This document shows, one piece after another, positions 30 to 16,693 of a DNA stretch of 39,656 nucleotides; within the stretch, counting starts at the first letter, position 1, and each line of letters opens with the position of its first letter. The stretch lies in the sequence record OZ035755.1, one strand, 5' to 3'. The notes beneath the pieces are model-generated. The model worked only from the letters and a program-made list of their open reading frames with translations, did no database searches and was not told the DNA's origin. Origin of the DNA: Kayfunavirus AN17P1. Position numbers and translations under genes: made by a program.

Positions 30-293
30 ATGACGCAGATGGACTTAGAGAAGTTCCTCTTGATGCTGGATACTGAACGTGCTAGACTCATGCTGCAAGA
101 CCTGCGGGATGACTCTAAGCGTTCACCTCAGCTTTACAACGCCATTGAGAAGCTACTGGCTCGTCACAACTTCGTGCTAAGCAAGGTGTCTGTTGACGAG
201 AAGACGCTCGCTGATATGGAGGCTTTGAACAGGGAGTACGATAAGGTGCTCTCAGCTACTGAGGATAACGACACCGGGTATGGTGTACAGTAA
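30..293 (+). CDS. gene 18: Terminase small subunit / DNA maturation protein A (T7 gp18-like), 87 aa
   Basis: Strong SD AAAGGAGG upstream of ATG; size and position immediately before the spanin pair and terminase large subunit match T7 gene 18 (89 aa). Confidence 0.7.
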   Translation: MTQMDLEKFLLMLDTERARLMLQDLRDDSKRSPQLYNAIEKLLARHNFVLSKVSVDEKTLADMEALNREYDKVLSATEDNDTGYGVQ

Positions 294-346: not shown

Positions 347-394
347 CTACGGGCGGAGACGCTACGTGGATTCTGAGAAATGAGGAGGGCAACT

Positions 395-832
395 ATGCTC
401 GAACTTTTACGTAAAGCAATCCCGTGGCTGGTTGCAGGACTCCTGTTCTGTTCTGGCTACTGGGTGGCAGACAATAAGTGGGAGGCGAAGGTAAACAATG
501 AGTACATCACGAAACTTGAGGCACGAGAGAATCAACGGGCTGCTGTCCAAGGTGAAATCAACAAAGTGTCAGCCGAGTGGCAAGACAAGATGTCCGCGCT
601 GGAAGGCTCTACTGATAGGATTATTGCTGACCTTAACCGCGATAACAAGCGGCTGCGCGTCCGAGTCAACACCTCAGGTCTCACCGAGTCAGATGTCAGT
701 AGATGCTTCCCTAATGGTAGAGTCGAACTACACCCAGAAACTTCTAAAAGTCTTATCCGATTAACTCAGGAGGCAGACCTTAAGGAGAAGGCGCTTCAGG
801 ACACAATAAGGAGGCTCCAAGGTGTTAAGTGA
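395..832 (+). CDS. gene 18.5: i-spanin (Rz-like, T7 gp18.5 homolog)
   Basis: Translation MLELLRKAIPWLVAGLLFCSGYW... resembles T7 gp18.5 N-terminus (MLEFLRKLIPW...) as I recall it; N-terminal TM segment; SD GAGGAGG 7 nt upstream of ATG 395 (the track's ATG 380 lies inside the SD). Confidence 0.8.
   Translation: MLELLRKAIPWLVAGLLFCSGYWVADNKWEAKVNNEYITKLEARENQRAAVQGEINKVSAEWQDKMSALEGSTDRIIADLNRDNKRLRVRVNTSGLTESDVSRCFPNGRVELHPETSKSLIRLTQEADLKEKALQDTIRRLQGVK
498..764 (+). CDS. gene 18.7: o-spanin (Rz1-like lipoprotein, T7 gp18.7 homolog) embedded in +1 frame of 18.5
   Basis: 88-aa ORF wholly inside the i-spanin gene in another frame; lipobox-like LTAITSGC followed by Pro/Ser-rich region; same embedded arrangement as T7 18.5/18.7. 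Confidence 0.75.
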   Translation: MSTSRNLRHERINGLLSKVKSTKCQPSGKTRCPRWKALLIGLLLTLTAITSGCASESTPQVSPSQMSVDASLMVESNYTQKLLKVLSD

Positions 833-1259
833 TTACTACAAAGTGGACCCGGCTAGTCCATCCGGTCTGGTCTCCGTTAGGACTGGAAAGCCTGTGGGGA
901 CATTAAGTCGGATGGGATATTGGATAGTACAGACACGAAGTCTAGGCAGTAAGCGGGCCCATCGTGTGATATGGGAACTAACCAATGGTCCTATACCGCA
1001 TGGTATGCAAATAGACCACATCGACAGGAACCCTAGCAATAATACCTTAAGTAACTTACGGCTCGTTACTGCCGCTGAAAACACTTGGAATACTGGTAGC
1101 CATTATGACTCTAAGACAGGAGTGAAGTGCGTTACCCGTCACCAGAATGGTTATAGGATTCAGGTTAAACGCGGGAATGCCTATATGCGAACAACACGTC
1201 CCACTTTAGAGGAGGCTATCGCTGTCCGGGACCTAATGCTGGAGGGACTATATGTCTAA
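822..1259 (+). CDS. HNH homing endonuclease (HNH plus AP2-like DNA-binding region), 145 aa
   Basis: Motif [41 protein letters not shown] typical of phage HNH endonucleases; GTG start with SD AAGGAGG; overlaps the 3' end of 18.5 and the 5' end of terminase; T7 has no gene here. Confidence 0.8.
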
Positions 1260-3018
1260 GAAAACACCCGCTGAAAGACAGGCAGAAATGGTCCAAAGGA
1301 TGAGGGACGACTTCGTGTTCTTCATCTTCGTTCTCTGGAAAGCACTAAGTCTTCCGGTTCCAACCCGCTGCCAGATAGATATGTGTAAGAAGCTGGCTGC
1401 TGGGGATAATCGCCGCTTCATCCTTCAGGCGTTCCGTGGTATTGGCAAGTCGTTTTTGACCTGTGGCTTTGTGGTCTGGAAGCTATGGAATAACCCAGAC
1501 TTGAAGTTCATGATTGTGTCGGCCTCAAAGGAACGAGCCGATGCGAACTCCATCTTCATCAAGCGAATCATCGACCTCATGCCTCAGCTTCGGGAACTCA
1601 AACCTAAGCAGGGGCAGCGAGATGCGGTTATCAGCTTCGACGTTGGACCAGCCAAGCCAGACCACTCACCTTCGGTTAAGTCCGTTGGTATCACTGGTCA
1701 GTTGACTGGTAGTCGTGCTGACATCCTGATTGCCGATGACGTGGAGGTTCCGAACAACTCAGCGACTCAGGCTGCACGAGACCGTCTATCAGAGCTTGTG
1801 AAAGAGTTCGACGCTATCCTGAAGCCGGGAGGTACGATCATCTATCTGGGTACTCCTCAGAACGAGATGACCCTGTACCGTGAGCTGGAAGGTCGTGGGT
1901 ACACCACTACTATCTGGCCCGCTCGTTATCCACGCGACAGGAAGGACTGGCAGTCTTACGGCGACCGTCTGGCTCCTATGCTTCAGGCAGAGCTGGAAGA
2001 GGACCCTGAGTCCTTCTACTGGCGTCCGACTGATGAAGTACGCTTCGATGATACGGACCTGAAGGAACGTGAGCTGTCCTACGGTAAAGCTGGCTTCGCT
2101 CTACAGTTCATGCTTAACCCGAACCTGAGTGATGCCGAGAAGTACCCTCTTAAGCTCCGTGACCTTATCGTAGCCGACTTGGACCCAGCGTCCAGCCCAA
2201 TGGTCTACCAATGGTTGCCGAACCCTCAGAACAAGCGTGAGGACGTTCCTAACGTTGGACTCATGGGTGACTCGTACCACACGTATCAGACTGTAGGTTC
2301 TGCCTTCAGCTCATACACCCAGAAGATTCTGGTCATTGACCCTAGTGGTCGTGGTAAGGATGAAACTGGATATGCGGTACTGTACCAGCTCAACGGCTAC
2401 ATCTTCGCTATGGAAGTTGGTGGCATGCGTGGTGGTTATGAAGACTCTACGCTGGAAGCCTTGGCTAAGATTGGTCGTAAGTGGAAGGTCAACGAGTACG
2501 TCATTGAGGGTAACTTCGGTGATGGTATGTACCTTGAGTTATTCAAGCCTGTAGCGGCCCGTATCCATCCTTCGTCTGTAACTGAAGTGAAGAGTAAGGG
2601 TCAGAAAGAACTCCGCATCTGTGACGTTCTGGAGCCTATCATGGGGTCTCACCGACTTATCGTTAACGCTGCTGCTATAGTCCAAGACTACCAGTCTGCC
2701 TCTGATAAGGATGGTGTTCGTAACCCTATCTACTCTCTCTTCTATCAGATGACACGTATCTCTCGTGAGCGTGGAGCCTTGGCACACGATGACCGACTTG
2801 ATGCGCTGGCTATCGGTGTACAGTTCTTCGTTGAGTCTATGGCTAAGGATGCTAGCAAAGGCGAACGTGAAGTCACTGAGGAATGGCTGGAGGAACAGAT
2901 GGAGAACCCACGGAAAGGCTTCGAGTCCATCCACACTGAGTTCTGGGACAATGGGGTCCGGGTAACTCACGATACGGACGACGAGCTTGGACTAGGGGCA
3001 TACGTTACGTTACACTAG
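1252..3018 (+). CDS. gene 19: Terminase large subunit (T7 gp19 homolog), 588 aa
   Basis: Length and position match T7 gp19 (586 aa); Walker A-like GIGKS and ATPase/nuclease-type motifs (LIADDVEVP); strong SD GGAGGGACTAT before ATG. Confidence 0.95.
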
Positions 3019-3583: not shown

Positions 3584-3624
3584 CTAAGGTCAGTTCATAG
3601 CTGACGCTACTCTACTGACCTTAG
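3584..3624. repeat. Inverted repeat CTAAGGTCAGT / ACTGACCTTAG (11-bp stem, 19-nt loop) near the right genome end
   Basis: Exact reverse-complement arms at 3584-3594 and 3614-3624; no downstream U-tract. Confidence 0.45.
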
Positions 3625-3699
3625 CTACTGTAGTCAAGGACTTTAGGTAACACCTTAATAGAAGCTCACTTAGGGTCATCCTACTTATTGGTCTATCCT

Positions 3700-4100
3700 A
3701 GTGTCGCCTGACCTACGGTCCTTGACCTACAGTAGCTGCCACCTACAGTATTCGATGAGTTTTGGACCAAAAGTTTGAGACCACATCTCACAGTTCAAGA
3801 ACCTCAAGTCTCCCCATAGGCCCTCTTTCAGTCCAGACCAAAGGCCCTACCCCAGTCTATCATAAGGTTAGACCGATGGTCAAGACTTCAGGTCAACGAT
3901 AGGTTGTGGCTATGGCTTAGGGAAGGACGATAGGTAGGGACTATTGGTCTGTCTTTGAGTCTCTATCTGTATCAGACCTTGAGTCACTACCTACAGTCTA
4001 ACTACCTACAGTCTAACTACCTACAGTCTAACTACCTACAGTCATCGACCATCGGTAATGCCGCTACCTACAGTCAGAGACCTACGGTTAATAGACACAA
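3700..4100. repeat. Genome terminus region: putative direct terminal repeat flanked by CCTAC(A/G)GT short repeats
   Basis: TCTCACAGTTCAAGAACC...CCCCATAGG at 3786 resembles the T7 (TCTCACAGTGTACGG) and T3 left-end sequences as I recall them; repeated GACCTACGGT / CACCTACAGT motifs on both sides mirror the CCTAAAG arrays flanking the T7 terminal repeat; no CDS. Repeat length cannot be read from a collapsed assembly. Confidence 0.5.
3986..4044. repeat. Tandem array, about 3.9 copies of 15-bp unit ACTACCTACAGTCTA
   Basis: Exact copies at 3986-4000, 4001-4015, 4016-4030 and a partial copy at 4031-4044. Confidence 0.9.
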
Positions 4101-4340
4101 GGCTATAGACTTAAGGTCTAAGACATGTTAGTCAAAGACTACATCCTCTTACACCATGGGGCCGACGATAGCTTAATCAATATTATTTCAAATTACCTAT
4201 TGACTATAGGTCCAGATTATGGCCTAATAGCTTCCGTCAACACGACACGGCAACAACCGGATAGTGAAGACGCCTGGTCATCCCGGTTAAGTAGACAGCC
4301 TGATAAGTCATACGAACAACAGGCAGATGACAGAAAGTAG

Positions 4341-4378
4341 TTGACAAGCAGTAACGATAAGATGTAAGCTGTACCACA
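4341..4378 (+). promoter_or_regulatory. Host sigma70 early promoter candidate (T7 A2/A3-like)
   Basis: Perfect -35 TTGACA (4341-4346), about 18-nt spacer, -10 TAAGCT, then GTACCACAT as in T7 A3 (TACGAT-GTACCACAT) as I recall it; about 200 nt upstream of the first early gene. Confidence 0.5.
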
Positions 4379-4486
4379 TCAAAACAACGGTGACGACCGA
4401 CACTGAAACGGTCTACCTGAAGTCCTCTGACTGAAGGGAATGCTCTTTAACAATCTGGATAAACTCTTAATGTGCGCCGATAGCGA

Positions 4487-4543
4487 CTAACTACAGGGTC
4501 TTTGAGTCTACATCTGAAGGCCCTGACTGATAGTCACTAACAA
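4487..4543 (+). promoter_or_regulatory. Conserved leader element, copy 1 (TAACTACAGGGTC ... CCTGACTGATAGTCACTAA), possible RNase III / translation-initiation leader
   Basis: Shares a 19-nt exact block CCTGACTGATAGTCACTAA and a TAACTACAGG(G)TC block with 4842-4892; ends about 17 nt before the start codon at 4560; small CAGGG/CCCTG stem. Confidence 0.5.
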
Positions 4544-4559
4544 CCTAAGAGGATTCATT

Positions 4560-4838
4560 ATGAGACTGAACAAAGCTACAGCAGAAGCCTTTCGCAAGGA
4601 GCTTGAATCAAGATTATTGTGTGGAGTGGCGGAAGGAGCCGCTCGATATAAAGAGAATGGTCTAACGTTCAAGCGCTTTATGTGGGATTGCTATCACGGA
4701 GTGGGCCATAAAAAGTTGCAGGAAATAATCACCAGCAACAATGCAGAAGTGCAAGTGATAGGAGGATATATGGCTAACGTGAAGGATTCACACATCGAGA
4801 CCATGCTTAAGAATGCACTTAACGATGTAGCCTACTAG
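4560..4838 (+). CDS. Hypothetical early protein, 92 aa; first gene to enter the cell, upstream of ocr
   Basis: SD AAGAGG before ATG; uninterrupted ORF; sits behind a copy of the same leader element as ocr; no recognisable family. Confidence 0.6.
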   Translation: MRLNKATAEAFRKELESRLLCGVAEGAARYKENGLTFKRFMWDCYHGVGHKKLQEIITSNNAEVQVIGGYMANVKDSHIETMLKNALNDVAY

Positions 4839-4841
4839 TGA

Positions 4842-4892
4842 TTAACTACAGGTCGTTAGACTGATAGCGGCCTGACTGATAGTCACTAAAAC
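4842..4892 (+). promoter_or_regulatory. Conserved leader element, copy 2, upstream of ocr
   Basis: Contains CCTGACTGATAGTCACTAA (4871-4889) and TTAACTACAGGTC; paralogous to 4487-4543. Confidence 0.5.
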
Positions 4893-4918
4893 ATACTTAA
4901 CTTTGAGAGGATATAACT

Positions 4919-5251
4919 ATGGAACGTAACGCTAACGCATACTATGAGCTGCTGGCTGCAACCGTTGAAGCATTTAACGAGCGTATTCAGTACGACGAAA
5001 TAGCTGAAGGCGATGACTACCACGATGCGCTGCATGAAGTCGTAGACGGTCAGGTTCCGCACTATTACCACGAGATTTTCACGGTGATGGCTGCTGATGG
5101 TATTGACCATGAGTTTGAAGACTCTGGGCTGATGCCTGATACCAAGGATGTGACGCGTATACTGCAAGCTCGCATCTATGAGGCGCTTTATAACGACGTG
5201 GCTGATAGCTTGGATGTAGTCTGGTTTGAGGCTGAAGAGGGAGACGAGTGA
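4919..5251 (+). CDS. gene 0.3 (ocr): Ocr (T7 gp0.3 homolog), DNA-mimic anti-restriction protein, 110 aa
   Basis: Translation ...[46 protein letters not shown]... is closely similar to T7 Ocr as I recall it ([45 protein letters not shown]); acidic C-terminus. Confidence 0.9.
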
Positions 5252-5406
5252 TGGTAACTTACGGTCTCTGTCAGCATCACGTCACCAACGCCCGGAGTAT
5301 GGTCAAGACCGGGCAATTAAACCACGATGCGACTATGCGTCACCTGAAAGCGGTCTATGAGGGCCACAAGCGCATACACGACAGTTTGCACGCTGAGGAT
5401 AAGTAA
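5251..5406 (+). CDS. gene 0.4: Small early protein, 51 aa, T7 gp0.4-like (FtsZ inhibitor family)
   Basis: ATGA start/stop overlap with ocr; translation [51 protein letters not shown] shares length and YGL...LKxxYExxKxI pattern with T7 gp0.4 as I recall it. Confidence 0.45.
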   Translation: MVTYGLCQHHVTNARSMVKTGQLNHDATMRHLKAVYEGHKRIHDSLHAEDK

Positions 5407-5519
5407 CGTGTATCATAGCCTGACCATAACGCTGACAGGTGGGTACTGAGTGATAGATGAGAGGTCATCGACTGATAGGTGGCCTCAAAGATTACCACTT
5501 GAATTAATAGGAGTTAACT

Positions 5520-5609
5520 ATGAGTGTGGGATATTGGGTCTGCCTAGCGCCAGTTATCTGGATGATAGGCTATGGGTTATACGACTGTATTAAACGGAAA
5601 TCACTATGA
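5520..5609 (+). CDS. Small hydrophobic ORF, 29 aa
   Basis: ATG after TAGGAG; translation MSVGYWVCLAPVIWMIGYGLYDCIKRKSL; stop overlaps the next ORF start. Confidence 0.25.
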   Translation: MSVGYWVCLAPVIWMIGYGLYDCIKRKSL

Positions 5610-5803
5610 GTCTTGCACTATTGATAGCAATAGGCTATGGACTTATCGCCTACGTGCTGGTGAGTGACATTAACAAGGCGCGTAAAGTCTACAAATTCAA
5701 CTATGTACGTCTGGGCCGCTGGACCGTACGTCAACCTAACGGACGATTCATGCGCAACCTAGCGAACGTATGGGATATAGCAACCTTAGGGAGCAAACTG
5801 TAA
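5606..5803 (+). CDS. Early membrane protein, 65 aa
   Basis: N-terminal TM segment (LALLIAIGYGLIAYVLV); position equivalent to the T7 0.5/0.6 region. Confidence 0.45.
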   Translation: MSLALLIAIGYGLIAYVLVSDINKARKVYKFNYVRLGRWTVRQPNGRFMRNLANVWDIATLGSKL

Positions 5804-5853
5804 TGCGCAATACTTGTAGCAAGCGCACTCAAATATCTTCAGGAGAATAAGTA

Positions 5854-6075
5854 ATGAATATAATTAAGGCAGCCACGGAGTCTATTAGCGCCATATTCCT
5901 ACCACGGCAAGAGGTATGTACCTCCCACAAGTTCATACTATCTTGCGTTGTCGGCGACGAGTTTGATGGTTTTGATAAGCTCGTTGTATGTGATTATTGT
6001 GGTCAAGAAGCTATACAGCACTCAAACGGTAAATTCGAACTAATTAACGAGGAAGGGGACGGCGATGGTGAATAA
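5854..6075 (+). CDS. Early Cys-containing protein, 73 aa; N-terminus resembles the start of T7 gp0.7
   Basis: SD CAGGAGAATAAGTA-ATG; N-terminus MNIIKAATESISAIFLP resembles T7 gp0.7 MNITDIMNAIDAIKALP as I recall it; four Cys including CDYC; far too short for a kinase. Confidence 0.45.
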   Translation: MNIIKAATESISAIFLPRQEVCTSHKFILSCVVGDEFDGFDKLVVCDYCGQEAIQHSNGKFELINEEGDGDGE

Positions 6076-6358
6076 CAAAAACAACGTATTTGGATACTTG
6101 GTGACAGGCTACCGACACGGAACCTCAAGTCACACCGCACGTCAACAGCAGGAGCGTGACAGGGTACTGCAAGCAAGACTCCGAGCTGAGGGCCATAAGT
6201 CCGAACTGTTGTGTCTGGCGTATGGTGGACGACCAATCACTGATGATGGTAAACTTCTGGTCTCAGGCTGGAAGGCGATAGACCAACGGTCAACCATCAA
6301 GCACACGACCCATGGTGACTTCAGCCATCTTCACGCTAACCCACTGATATGCAAGTGA
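6065..6358 (+). CDS. Hypothetical early protein, 97 aa
   Basis: ORF overlapping the previous stop; last gene before RNAP; no family recognised. Confidence 0.45.
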   Translation: MVNNKNNVFGYLVTGYRHGTSSHTARQQQERDRVLQARLRAEGHKSELLCLAYGGRPITDDGKLLVSGWKAIDQRSTIKHTTHGDFSHLHANPLICK

Positions 6359-6363
6359 TTCTG

Positions 6364-6387
6364 ACTTAACTATCACTATAGGACTCA
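6364..6387 (+). promoter_or_regulatory. Phage RNAP promoter upstream of the RNAP gene
   Basis: CTTAACTATCACTATAGGACTC fits the consensus; +1 G about 6381, 75 nt before the gene 1 ATG. Confidence 0.65.
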
Positions 6388-6455
6388 AGGTCTAAGACTC
6401 CAAGTGAAAGACCAAAGAGACTTTAAGTGAAAGACTAATAACAAGGACTTTAAGT

Positions 6456-9137
6456 ATGAGCGTCATCTCTATTGACAAACACGACTTCTCTGATGTGTCG
6501 AACGCCATTGAGCCGTTTAACCTGCTGGCTGACCACTACGGGCAAGACCTTGCAGTCAAACAGCTTCAGCTGGAGCACGAGGCATACACTGAAGGCGAGC
6601 GACGTTTCATCAAAAACCTTGAGCGACAGACTGAGCGCGGGGAACTGGCAGACAATCAGGTAGCCAAGCCTTTGATGCAGACTCTGGTCCCTAAGATTGC
6701 GCAAGCCGTCAGGGAGTGGCATGAAGGTCCAGACGGGAAGCTGTCAACCTCTCGTCCGAGCGTAGCGTTCACCATGTTAAGCACTGAAGAGAAGGCCGTC
6801 AAGGACCGCTCTCTTCGCATCTCCTGCGAGTCTGCTGCGGTTATCATACTGAAGGTCATCCTATCCAAGCTGGTCAAACCTGAAGGTATACCGATTACAC
6901 CGATGGCCTCCGCGATAGGTCGCACACTTGAGGATGAAATCCGATTCGGTCGCATTCGTGACAAGGAGAAGGAGCACTTCAAGAAGGCGATAGCTGATAA
7001 CCTGAACAAGAGAGCCGGGGCATCATACAAGAAAGCCTACATGCAAGCGGTCGAGACATCCATGCTGGAGCAAGGCCAACTAGAAGATGCGTGGGGAACT
7101 TGGAGTCCGACCGAGGCTGTCCACGTTGGAATCAAGATGCTGGAGATTGTCATCCAGTCAACACAACTGGTCGAGCTTAAGCGTTACGGTGCTGGCAATG
7201 CAGCGGCTGACGTTGAGATGGTCCACCTGTCAGACTTCTGGGTCAAGAAGATGACACAACGCGGCTTCAGCCTTGCGGGTATCGCTCCAGTCTACCAACC
7301 TTGCGTAGTTCCACCTAAGCCGTGGACTGGTGTCGTAGGCGGTGGGTACTGGGCCAAAGGTCGCAGACCATTACCACTGATTCGCTTAGGGTCTAAGTCT
7401 GCGGTGGCACGTTACGAAGACGTGTATATGCCTGAAGTCTATGACGCTGTTAACATAATCCAGAATACACCTTGGAAAGTGAACAAGAAGGTTCTGGACG
7501 TGGTGAACATGGTCGAGAAGTTGAACAACACGCCTATTGATGACATCCCTCAGATGGAGCCACTGAAGCCTGAAGAATATGCGGGTGAGACTGAAGAGGA
7601 ACTCAAGGCGTGGAAGAAAGCGGCTGCTGGTATCTATCGCCGCGAGAAGGCCAGACAGTCACGCAGATTGTCGCTGAGCTTTATCGTTAACCAAGCGAAC
7701 AAGTTCTCTCAGTTCAAGACCATCTGGTTCCCGTATAACATGGACTGGCGCGGTCGCGTCTACGCTGTGCCGATGTTCAACCCTCAGGGTAACGACATGC
7801 AAAAGGGTCTCCTGACTCTGGCAGTCGGTAAGCCTATTGGTGCTGATGGTTTCAAATGGCTGAAGGTCCACGGTGCAAACTGTGCGGGTGTCGATAAAGT
7901 AACCTTCGAGGAGCGCATCAAGTGGGTGGAAGATAACCACGACAACATCATGGCTACCTCTAAGGCACCGATGGACAGCATTGAGTGGTGGGGAAAGTTA
8001 GACTCTCCGTTCTGCTTCCTAGCGTTCTGCTTCGAGTATGCCGGCGTAATGCATCACGGATTGTCTTACTCCTGCTCGCTGCCGATAGCTTTCGATGGGT
8101 CCTGCTCTGGGATTCAGCACTTTAGCGCGATGCTTCGTGATCACATCGGTGGACATGCAGTAAACCTGACGCCTTCCGGTAAGGTCCAAGACATCTACCG
8201 CATCGTGTCTGACCGCATTGAGGAAGAGCTTAAAGTCCTGCTGGTTAACGGCACGGACAACGAGATGGTAACTCACGAGGACAAGAAAACTGGTGAGATT
8301 ACCGAACGTCTCAAGCTGGGGACACGAGAGCTGGCCCGGCAGTGGCTGACTTACGGTATGTCACGCAAGGTTACTAAGCGCTCAGTCATGACTCTGGCCT
8401 ATGGGTCGAAAGAGTACGGCTTTGCAGACCAAGTTTATGAGGACATCGTGATGCCAGCGATTGACTCAGGGTCTGGCGCTATGTTCACTGAACCAAGCCA
8501 AGCGTCCTGCTTCATGGCTAAGATGATTTGGGAAGCTGTGAGTGTGACCGTAGTTGCTGCGGTTGACGCGATGAAGTGGCTTCAAGGTGCTGCCAAGCTG
8601 CTGGCGGCTGAAGTGAAGGACAAGAAGACTGGAGAAATCCTGAAGCCTTGCCTTCCGGTACACTGGGTCACACCTGATGGGTTCCCGGTCTGGCAGGAAT
8701 ACCGCAAGAAGGATACCACTCGTCTGAACCTGATGTTCTTAGGGTCATTCAACCTTCAGCCTACCGTCAACAAAGGCACGAAGAAGGAGTTGGATAAGCA
8801 CAAGCAGGAGTCAGGAATTAGCCCGAACTTCGTCCACTCACAAGATGGTAGCCATCTCCGCAAGACTGTAGTCCACACTCACCGTAAGTATGGCGTGATG
8901 TCGTTCGCAGTGATTCACGATAGCTTCGGGACCATCCCGGCTGACGCTGAATATCTGTTCCGTGGTGTCCGTGAGACGATGGTCGAGACCTACCGCGATA
9001 ACGATGTGCTGCTTGACTTCTACGAGCAGTTTGAATACCAACTTCATGAGAGCCAGCGCGACAAGTTGCCTGAGCTTCCGAAGAAAGGTAAACTGAATAT
9101 TGAGGACATTCTATCTTCAGACTTTGCATTCGCTTAA
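6456..9137 (+). CDS. gene 1: T7-type single-subunit DNA-dependent RNA polymerase, 893 aa
   Basis: Collinear similarity to T7 RNAP as I recall it (AIWFPYNMDWRGRVYAV, HGANCAGVDK, SPFCFLAFCFEYAG, SCSGIQHFSAMLRD, IHDSFGT, C-terminal FAFA). Confidence 0.97.
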   Translation: MSVISIDKHDFSDVSNAIEPFNLLADHYGQDLAVKQLQLEHEAYTEGERRFIKNLERQTERGELADNQVAKPLMQTLVPKIAQAVREWHEGPDGKLSTSRPSVAFTMLSTEEKAVKDRSLRISCESAAVIILKVILSKLVKPEGIPITPMASAIGRTLEDEIRFGRIRDKEKEHFKKAIADNLNKRAGASYKKAYMQAVETSMLEQGQLEDAWGTWSPTEAVHVGIKMLEIVIQSTQLVELKRYGAGNAAADVEMVHLSDFWVKKMTQRGFSLAGIAPVYQPCVVPPKPWTGVVGGGYWAKGRRPLPLIRLGSKSAVARYEDVYMPEVYDAVNIIQNTPWKVNKKVLDVVNMVEKLNNTPIDDIPQMEPLKPEEYAGETEEELKAWKKAAAGIYRREKARQSRRLSLSFIVNQANKFSQFKTIWFPYNMDWRGRVYAVPMFNPQGNDMQKGLLTLAVGKPIGADGFKWLKVHGANCAGVDKVTFEERIKWVEDNHDNIMATSKAPMDSIEWWGKLDSPFCFLAFCFEYAGVMHHGLSYSCSLPIAFDGSCSGIQHFSAMLRDHIGGHAVNLTPSGKVQDIYRIVSDRIEEELKVLLVNGTDNEMVTHEDKKTGEITERLKLGTRELARQWLTYGMSRKVTKRSVMTLAYGSKEYGFADQVYEDIVMPAIDSGSGAMFTEPSQASCFMAKMIWEAVSVTVVAAVDAMKWLQGAAKLLAAEVKDKKTGEILKPCLPVHWVTPDGFPVWQEYRKKDTTRLNLMFLGSFNLQPTVNKGTKKELDKHKQESGISPNFVHSQDGSHLRKTVVHTHRKYGVMSFAVIHDSFGTIPADAEYLFRGVRETMVETYRDNDVLLDFYEQFEYQLHESQRDKLPELPKKGKLNIEDILSSDFAFA

Positions 9138-9429: not shown

Positions 9430-9453
9430 CCTAAACTATCACTATAGGATTAG
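9430..9453 (+). promoter_or_regulatory. Phage RNAP promoter (phi1.1-like)
   Basis: CCTAAACTATCACTATAGGATTA; consensus match. Confidence 0.75.
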
Positions 9454-9492
9454 ACTAAAGGTCATGACTCAAAGTCGTGGCCTTCATGATTA
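9451..9492 (+). promoter_or_regulatory. Conserved stem-loop, putative RNase III site (R1.1-like)
   Basis: AAGGTCATGACT / AGTCGTGGCCTT arms (9458-9469, 9473-9484) with two G-U pairs and a 3-nt loop; same family as 294-346 and 16631-16677. Confidence 0.4.
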
Positions 9493-9525
9493 ACCCTAAA
9501 TAAACACTACTGGAGATTTAACCGT

Positions 9526-16466: not shown

Positions 16467-16630
16467 TGTTTAAGAAACTTAAAGCTCGATACCATCGGTT
16501 CATGTACAAATGGTGGAGCGATGAAGCAACCTGCCTGTCGAACATTCTGGGAGACCAGCGGTTCAACTCTGCGGCATGGAAGAAAGCTAACCGGAAGTTC
16601 ATGTATCACTTCTTGCGTACAGACTTCTAG

Positions 16631-16677
16631 GTCTAGACTCAAGGTCATTCACATCGAGTGGCCTTTATGATTAGACT
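16631..16677 (+). promoter_or_regulatory. Conserved stem-loop, putative RNase III site upstream of the DNA polymerase gene
   Basis: GTCTAGACTCAAGGTCATTCACATCGAGTGGCCTTTATGATTAGAC; third member of the family at 294-346 and 9451-9492. Confidence 0.4.
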
Positions 16678-16693
16678 AAACGGAGGATTAACC

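Follow-up and report, generated by a model that had tools for sequence, protein, structure and literature searches.

In the genome of Kayfunavirus AN17P1 (sequence record OZ035755.1, analyzed here as one window of 39,656 nucleotides), a gene for a 92-residue protein precedes ocr, which encodes the DNA-mimic anti-restriction protein, and each of the two genes follows a copy of the same leader element. We find that this element is a strand-specific member, acting at the RNA level, of the family of RNase III processing sites known from phage T7, and that it is not a promoter. With a probability of roughly 70%, we read the region as a hairpin-bounded accessory gene cassette that occupies the first early slot of a K1F-like phage. 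An earlier note on this DNA had placed the 92-residue open reading frame (ORF) at 4560-4838 and ocr at 4919-5251, and both are present there; it had further proposed a duplicated ocr leader driving a new gene, an idea of which one part stands and others do not, as set out below.

Two hairpins with common arms

The repeated element contains a 19-nucleotide block, CCTGACTGATAGTCACTAA, that occurs exactly twice in the 39,656 bases, once before the 92-residue ORF and once before ocr, where 100 shuffles gave an expectation of zero; no further match with up to three mismatches exists in the whole window. A second shared block (TAGCGACTAACTACAGG at 4481-4497 and TAGTGATTAACTACAGG at 4836-4852, 88% identity) has the consensus TAG(C/T)GA(C/T)TAACTACAGG starting at 4481 and 4836. 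Both blocks had been pointed out in the earlier note and are there as described. The small stem that it had drawn, CAGGG/CCCTG in one copy and CAGG/CCTG in the other, does pair but is just the base of a 10-base-pair upper helix. Minimum-free-energy folding turns each element into a hairpin of 54-60 nucleotides, comprising a 9-base-pair lower helix, an asymmetric internal loop, and the 10-base-pair upper helix. None of 200 shuffled sequences was as stable as hairpin 1 (-22.9 kcal/mol, z -3.75), and none of 200 as stable as hairpin 2 (-24.5 kcal/mol, z -5.19). The two hairpins have both arms in common and differ in their upper helices.

Hairpin 1 aligns with the T7 site R0.3 over both arms (TAGCGACTAACTACAGGG...CCCTGACTGATAGTCACTAA compared with TAGCGGATAACTCAAGGG...CCCTTTATGATATTCACTAA), sharing the invariant ACT..AGG..CCT..TGAT, and lies at the R0.3 position, between the early promoters and the first gene. 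The link to R0.3 suggested earlier is thus correct, and by sequence hairpin 1 is plainly an orthologue of that site. Alignment with T7 R0.3, R0.5, and R1.1 leaves 17 invariant columns. The T7 cleavage coordinates 890, 1468, 3138, 5887, and 6448, attributed to Dunn & Studier 1983, each lie within the 3' strand of an internal loop, in a hairpin of the same type.

A seed alignment of 11 sequences with the invariant ACT..AGG / CCT..TGAT core served to build a covariance model. In this seed, 95.9% of the cells of the 20-pair structure are paired and 11 of the 20 pairs have changed on both sides, compared with 29-49% paired cells in controls with slid partners. Among 65 distinct hits, 94.5% of cells are paired and 15 of the 20 pairs show compensatory changes; the hit alignment was fitted to the model and hence leans towards the structure, and its slid controls stay at 24-50%. 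The model scored hairpin 1 at 58.8 bits (E 3e-12) and hairpin 2 at 69.9 bits (E 6e-15). With both strands searched, it detected six sites in the window (292, 4481, 4836, 5448, 9445, and 16628) and 70 in 50 related loci; without exception, these 76 hits are on the plus strand, that of the genes. The window hits checked, at 292-346, 4481, 4836, and 5448, are intergenic; the first separates ORFs resembling genes 18 and 18.5, the position of R18.5 in T7. Confinement of every hit to the transcribed strand, together with compensatory changes that preserve pairing, indicates constraint at the RNA level.

A consensus scan found no sigma-70 promoter-like match inside 4481-4540 or 4836-4889, which rules out a promoter within the repeat. 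There is no terminator-like site anywhere in 3600-6600, and the hairpins have no U tract and are therefore ruled out as terminators. Taken with the covariation and strand specificity, these results assign the repeated element to the processing-site family and not to promoters. An Rfam search of 3600-7000 with E up to 1 returned no match; Rfam apparently has no family for T7 RNase III sites.

Could hairpins of this kind be something other than RNase III sites, such as RNA stabilizers, attenuators, protein-binding sites, or DNA targets of site-specific or homing recombination? The cassette boundaries described in the next section coincide with the repeats, the genome carries an HNH endonuclease gene elsewhere (822-1259), and cleavage in AN17P1 is predicted from homology and structure. 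We nevertheless consider this improbable, given the clear orthology of hairpin 1 to R0.3 in a family that includes T7 R0.5 and R1.1, the uniform strand and the compensatory changes among the 76 hits, and the lack of U-tract terminators. Moreover, none of the loci examined has a recombinase or endonuclease gene within the slot or next to it, and the same hairpin family also occupies sites without variation in gene content.

A variable slot in front of ocr

What lies between such hairpins varies among relatives. The stretch from hairpin 1 to ocr is empty in CR44b and PE3-1-like phages. It holds gp0.2 in K1F (84 residues as read here, annotated as 81), the 92-residue gene in AN17P1, the 92-residue gene and then gp0.2 in Vec13, and gp0.2 and then the 92-residue gene in Peacock. 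Each inserted unit consists of a ribosome-binding site, an ORF, and a hairpin with the same 19-nucleotide block at its end, and the breakpoints among aligned relatives fall exactly at ...CACTAAC and in the 5' arm of the next hairpin. The ocr leader is kept in all relatives, regardless of upstream content.

The same pattern extends to 31 IMG/VR loci in which a hairpin was detected immediately before ocr. The slot is empty in 21 and filled in 10, each of the latter with one or two of four ORF families: the 92-residue protein, gp0.2/phrog_10124, a 58-residue phrog_20418 protein, and a 43-residue ORF. These counts were made with the covariance model in place of regular-expression hairpin detection; far-upstream orphan hairpins reported by the latter (for example, L040 2094-2174) were rejected as false positives in terminal-repeat regions. 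In other loci, the first hairpin-bounded position holds a 51-residue ORF, a 174-residue phrog_11084 protein, or an S-adenosylmethionine (S-AdoMet, SAM) lyase, the 51-residue ORF and the lyase being in two loci beyond the 31, and the 92-residue gene is one of at least six alternative occupants. Since relatives have no gene, other genes, or reordered genes in this place, the region before ocr is a polymorphic plug-in slot. Wherever the hairpin was duplicated among the relatives and IMG/VR loci compared, an ORF preceded the extra copy. As evidence against its reading, the earlier note had named relatives with the ORF absent or disrupted and the leader repeat kept; instead, the extra hairpin is gone as well or another ORF is present.

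The other occupants (K1F gp0.2, phrog_10124, phrog_20418, phrog_11084, and the SAM lyase PF23780) resemble the 92-residue gene in position, flanking hairpins, and compact layout, with a stop codon abutting or overlapping the next hairpin. They differ in belonging to protein families unrelated to the 92-residue protein, and a known anti-restriction function is found only in the SAM lyase. No paper on K1F gp0.2 was found in the literature searched.

Two homologues bear on how the unit spreads. Yersinia phage AP10, of another genus, carries the gene in another slot, following ocr and 0.4 and behind an R0.5-type hairpin; in locus L062, it lies behind an R0.3-type hairpin. Both have the same private leader, beginning right after ..CACT. 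As in the window, the AP10 gene is followed by the second type of hairpin (upper helix CAGGTCGTTAG...), whose lower stem shows compensatory changes. In other lineages, the pair of hairpins flanking the cassette shares a lineage-specific 3' arm, such as GATAACCACTAAC in L036 and L042.

Of the cassette duplication proposed earlier, the extra unit with its own copy of the leader is therefore real, whereas duplication in place does not agree with the different upper helices. Because these helices differ and AP10 has the same second-type hairpin elsewhere, the hairpin before ocr is not a fresh local duplication, and the unit appears to have been imported by recombination. The breakpoints, the shared arms, and the AP10 and L062 leaders lead us to place the putative crossover points in the hairpin arms, with the unit moving between slots and genera. 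The arms would thereby act as short direct DNA repeats for homologous recombination between co-infecting relatives, which could insert, delete, replace, or reorder units; such events would explain the alternative contents and orders found in relatives. An integron or homing mechanism is rejected, there being no enzyme gene nearby. On RNase III sites as recombination points in T7-like phages, the literature searched contained nothing relevant.

The 92-residue gene is conserved

The protein matches the PHROG family phrog_9817, of unknown function, over its full length (E 3.8e-26; its residues 1-92 align with positions 1-93 of the 94-position profile). By tblastn, the family occurs in 61 of 50,697 phage records, all T7-like and all in the early region, as intact ORFs of 88-94 residues from at least four named genera including Kayfunavirus, Apdecimavirus, Przondovirus, and Ermolevavirus. 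Even among Kayfunavirus relatives, only a minority carries it, and homologues in relatives were deposited as 'hypothetical protein'. Contrary to the earlier note, the gene is consequently not new, having already been recorded as phrog_9817 and as 'hypothetical' in those 61 records. Twenty homologues, down to about 50% identity, are 88-94 residues long and share 25 invariant positions, including GLTF.RF.WD and D..IE.ML. Purifying selection acts on the gene, as the ratio of nonsynonymous to synonymous substitution rates (dN/dS) against Vec13 and Peacock is 0.29-0.34.

This dN/dS of about 0.3, the phrog_9817 match, and the 61 phage records mark the ORF, on sequence grounds, as a real, selected, phage-restricted gene. 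A chance ORF is rejected on the dN/dS value. The view that the ORF is a non-functional passenger, and that only the hairpin duplication matters, can appeal to its missing functional annotation. It would also have to accommodate the selection, the ORF length and 25 invariant residues kept to about 50% identity across genera, a strong Shine-Dalgarno sequence 6 nucleotides before the ATG, and an extra hairpin never seen without an ORF in front. A wider profile, moreover, gathers 229 small proteins into a coherent family. We regard a passenger as extremely improbable.

An exhaustive profile search of 1.84 billion representatives returned 15 small anonymous proteins, and the searched literature made no mention of the family's accessions, PHROG number, or motif. 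In one 104-residue metagenomic protein (P0028), the N-terminal 66 residues belong to the 92-residue family, and the C-terminal tail (..LQQVDAPKGECYSIIDGQYWEVV) is similar to the end of the L018 SAM lyase (..FQQVDEPKGECFTKDAEGRFWEVV). A deletion seems to have fused adjacent genes of the 92-residue family and SAM lyase, a reading consistent with the adjacency of the two in Przondovirus-like phages.

Proposed expression of the cassette

The first 20 nucleotides of the Vec13 record, whose terminal repeat is annotated at 1-179, match the window from 3786, which therefore is the genome left end. From there it is 775 nucleotides to the ATG of the 92-residue gene and 1134 to that of ocr. Only about the first 850 bp of T7 DNA enter the cell initially, the remainder being pulled in by transcription, and in a T7-like genome, expression of the first few hundred bases precedes exposure of the remaining DNA to the host. 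As the earlier note had it, the 92-residue gene occupies the first expressed position of a T7-like genome. Its claim that no gene lies closer to the left end also holds, with one caveat: a 71-residue ORF at 4125-4340, which is probably not a gene. This ORF overlaps a promoter-like TTGACT at 4200 and has an in-frame stop in CR44b; its divergence among relatives is too small to judge selection.

The leader itself had been proposed to drive the 92-residue gene. That part has to be given up: with no sigma-70 match and membership in the processing-hairpin family, the leader leaves transcription to start at host-type promoters upstream. One candidate, at 4341-4378, was set beside the T7 A3 sequence TTGACA..TACGATGTACCACAT; the other is the T7 A1-like TTGACT at 4200. 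Their -10 hexamers are too weak for listing by the consensus scan, and so the two promoters are inferred from homology only.

Host RNA polymerase would start upstream of 4481 and place hairpin 1, the 92-residue gene, hairpin 2, and ocr on one RNA. Host RNase III would then make a single cut per hairpin, in the 3' strand of the internal loop, at about 4528/4529 and 4877/4878; the first cut (ACU^GAU) is predicted by homology with T7 coordinate 890. Internal loops restrict RNase III to one cut, which leaves a 3' hairpin that protects the upstream RNA (PMC1540722). In AN17P1, the cuts would release a monocistronic mRNA of about 349 nucleotides for the 92-residue protein, retaining a 3' stem-loop as protection against exonucleases. 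This message and that of ocr would begin with the same 5' end, GAUAGUCACUAA, and the ocr message would thus keep its normal leader regardless of what the slot holds.

Between ocr and the RNA polymerase gene (5251-6456) there are only small ORFs of up to 97 residues; the ORF list for this interval contains none of the size of the T7 0.7 protein kinase. In T7, that kinase raises RNase III activity (PMC4858673), and processing in AN17P1 would therefore have to do without it.

What the 92-residue protein may do

The 92-residue protein has no sequence or fold match in Pfam, NCBIfam, or PDB. Against PADLOC it gives only a chance-level SIR2 match (E 0.016), and no similarity to any anti-defense family was found in PADLOC, NCBIfam, or the PHROG functions. 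Structure prediction, as advised in the earlier note, yielded a confident AlphaFold model with five helices and a beta hairpin (predicted local distance difference test, pLDDT, 90) but no fold match. A DNA mimic of the Ocr/ArdA type is ruled out, since the isoelectric point (pI) is 8.6 compared with about 4 for such proteins and no fold matches. The neighboring Ocr, by comparison, has a pI of 4.05 and a net charge of -24, and is identified by PF08684 (2.7e-32; 111.7 bits versus a gathering cut-off of 25) and phrog_2568 (4.7e-53).

The neighborhood of the gene is conserved. Its immediate downstream neighbor is ocr in the window and in L062, and an S-AdoMet lyase gene of the T3 0.3 type (PF23780) in Klebsiella phage Oda and E. 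coli phage PGT2. In AP10, it stands just downstream of ocr and 0.4, and SAM lyase can itself fill the hairpin-bounded first slot. With homology and structure uninformative, genomic context remains, and on that basis we consider it most likely that the protein acts early, by binding or inhibiting a host or defense protein. The leading guess for its target would be a component of a defense system, and we give a counter-defense role slightly less than an even chance. By guilt by association only, the protein is a reasonable anti-defense candidate.

Several points weigh against our account. RNase III cleavage of both hairpins is predicted from homology and structure only, and recombination at the hairpins is deduced indirectly, from breakpoints. 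The upstream promoter is weak by consensus, its -10 being TAAGCT, and is not listed by the scan. Only one of five AlphaFold models is confident, the other four having pLDDT values of 53-63, and the protein is mildly basic (pI 8.6, net charge +1.8), unlike DNA mimics. Three distant family members that we checked lie among unannotated small ORFs of other phage types. Finally, T7 early genes include inhibitors of host functions other than defense, so position alone does not imply an anti-defense role.

The last point leads to a possible, though unlikely, alternative, in which the cassette is as described and the 92-residue protein is a general host-takeover or phage-competition factor and not a counter-defense one. 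The class I region of T7 mixes anti-restriction with host-shutoff genes, and its early proteins gp0.4 and gp2 inhibit the housekeeping proteins FtsZ and RNA polymerase, respectively. Gp0.4 and FtsZ are linked in PMC13423816. The basic character of the 92-residue protein and its dissimilarity to anti-defense families are in keeping with such a role. The distribution of the gene, in contrast, is patchy (61 of 50,697 records, a minority even in Kayfunavirus relatives), it recurs beside two unrelated anti-restriction genes, ocr and SAM lyase, and it shares its slot with SAM lyase itself; an accessory arms-race gene therefore fits better.

Beyond a hairpin-bounded cassette with an early-acting product, we entertain, as an unlikely and speculative extension, that the RNase III hairpins double as recombination linkers, forming an integron-like array without an integrase, and that the 92-residue protein is a counter-defense factor with an unseen fold working alongside Ocr or SAM lyase. 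If this were true, any ORF between two hairpins would be expressed first on entry, from its own stabilized mRNA and with ocr undisturbed, and the 92-residue protein might, for example, block a system that senses Ocr or SAM lyase. The earliest-expressed position is where a T7-like phage places its anti-restriction gene, and a gene that is conserved, selected, mobile, and recurrently found beside ocr or SAM lyase offers a well-defined candidate for a new protein directed at the host or its defenses. A design rule is also suggested: identical processed 5' ends and protective 3' hairpins would insulate each cistron, so that cassettes could be swapped without re-tuning ocr, an architecture of interest for phage engineering.

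Genome setting

The 1.2 kb around the locus share 99.6% identity with Kayfunavirus AN24P4 and 88-95% with K1F, Vec13, Peacock, and many further K1F-like T7 relatives; the window is a circularly permuted Kayfunavirus (K1F-like) genome. Its main features are collected in Table 1.

Table 1. Features of the AN17P1 window discussed in the text
Feature	Position	Strand	Remarks
Small packaging protein	30-293		Late gene upstream of left end
Rz-like protein	380-832		Late gene upstream of left end
HNH endonuclease	822-1259	+	PF13392, E 6.7e-21
ORF at T7 gene 19 position	1252-3018		Read as large terminase subunit by position
Further RNase III-type hairpins	292-346, 9445-9499, 16628-16679	+	Covariance model
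Genome left end, start of terminal repeat	3786	+	First 20 nucleotides of Vec13 record (TCTCACAGTTCAAGAACCTC...) match here
71-residue ORF	4125-4340	+	Annotated gp0.1 in K1F and Peacock
Putative host RNA polymerase early promoter, T7 A3 homologue	4341-4378	+	TTGACA, 18 nucleotides, TAAGCT, then GTACCACA; +1 near 4378
Hairpin 1, by sequence an orthologue of T7 R0.3 RNase III site	4481-4540	+	Fold, alignment, covariance model
19-nucleotide block, copy 1	4522-4540	+	CCTGACTGATAGTCACTAA; 3' part of upper helix, 3' side of internal loop, 3' arm of lower stem
Shine-Dalgarno AAGAGGA of 92-residue gene	4547-4553	+	6 nucleotides before ATG; read from sequence
92-residue early accessory gene	4560-4838	+	phrog_9817 family; ATG start, TAG stop
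Hairpin 2, RNase III-type site	4836-4889	+	Starts on TAG stop of 92-residue gene
19-nucleotide block, copy 2	4871-4889	+	CCTGACTGATAGTCACTAA
Shine-Dalgarno GAGAGGA of ocr	4905-4911	+	Read from sequence
ocr, DNA-mimic anti-restriction gene	4919-5251	+	110 residues; PF08684, phrog_2568
Next hairpin of same family, R0.5-like position	5448-5501	+	31.5 bits, E 2e-5; closes ocr/0.4-like transcript segment
RNA polymerase gene	6456-9137		

The HNH gene lies between the Rz-like gene and the ORF at the gene 19 position, and overlaps both; it probably entered the late region as a homing endonuclease insertion. A short way into the genome from the left end, about 200 nucleotides past the start of the terminal repeat, a 28-nucleotide unit occurs in three exact overlapping copies at 15-nucleotide spacing (3986-4043), the 15-nucleotide unit ACTACCTACAGTCTA being repeated about four times; a degenerate further copy lies at 4048-4075. 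The array resembles the short repeat arrays that adjoin the terminal repeat of T7.

Among close relatives, Ocr is mostly 110-121 residues long and reaches 166-169 residues in K1F and some others (compared as L003 1086-1595 with 4919-5251 of the window). A T3-like contig (L061 870-2194, IMGVR_UViG_2595698912) encodes an S-AdoMet lyase at 870-1325 (PF23780) and, about 350 nucleotides past it, an Ocr-like protein of 173 residues with a long C-terminal extension, and thus has two different anti-restriction genes in its early region.

Comparison with known systems

T7-type RNase III sites, Ocr, and the accessory hot spot beside ocr are already known. Like the T7 sites (R0.3, R0.5, R1.1, and others; reviewed in PMC1540722), the AN17P1 hairpins have two helices with an asymmetric loop, the ACT..AGG / CCT..TGAT core, and intergenic placement on the transcribed strand. 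Unlike T7, AN17P1 has an extra hairpin, a predicted site, between the first gene and ocr, and its pair combines identical arms (19 nucleotides exact) with different upper helices.

Accessory regions of T7-like phages, including that of ocr, have been described with genes that confer defense-related phenotypes (Silas et al., bioRxiv 10.1101/2023.04.06.535777); in the same study, orf24 (positions 1130-1339 of a T7-like genome) gave a phenotype that depended on the host. As here, that accessory region places variable small unknown genes beside ocr in otherwise collinear phages. Motifs of the 92-residue family are absent from the gene library of that study, which contains T7 Ocr, and RNase III occurs zero times in its text. 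Neither RNase III hairpins as cassette boundaries and probable recombination linkers nor cassettes in permuted order were found in the searchable literature.

The nearest published analogue is the system of PeSLs, mobile regulatory cassettes of T4-type phages that combine an early promoter with a terminator stem-loop (PMC2839356). Their repeats border small, dispensable ORFs to which no function has been assigned (Arbiol et al. 2010, PMC2839356) and mark the boundaries of insertions, deletions, and replacements between close relatives, which have been attributed to recombination between repeats (PMC2839356). The AN17P1 hairpins likewise flank variable small ORFs and coincide with the boundaries of indels and replacements. 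They differ in carrying neither promoter nor terminator, each being a predicted RNA-processing site within one transcript. The hairpin-bounded slot in front of ocr may thus be the T7-group counterpart of PeSL-mediated shuffling in T4-type phages.

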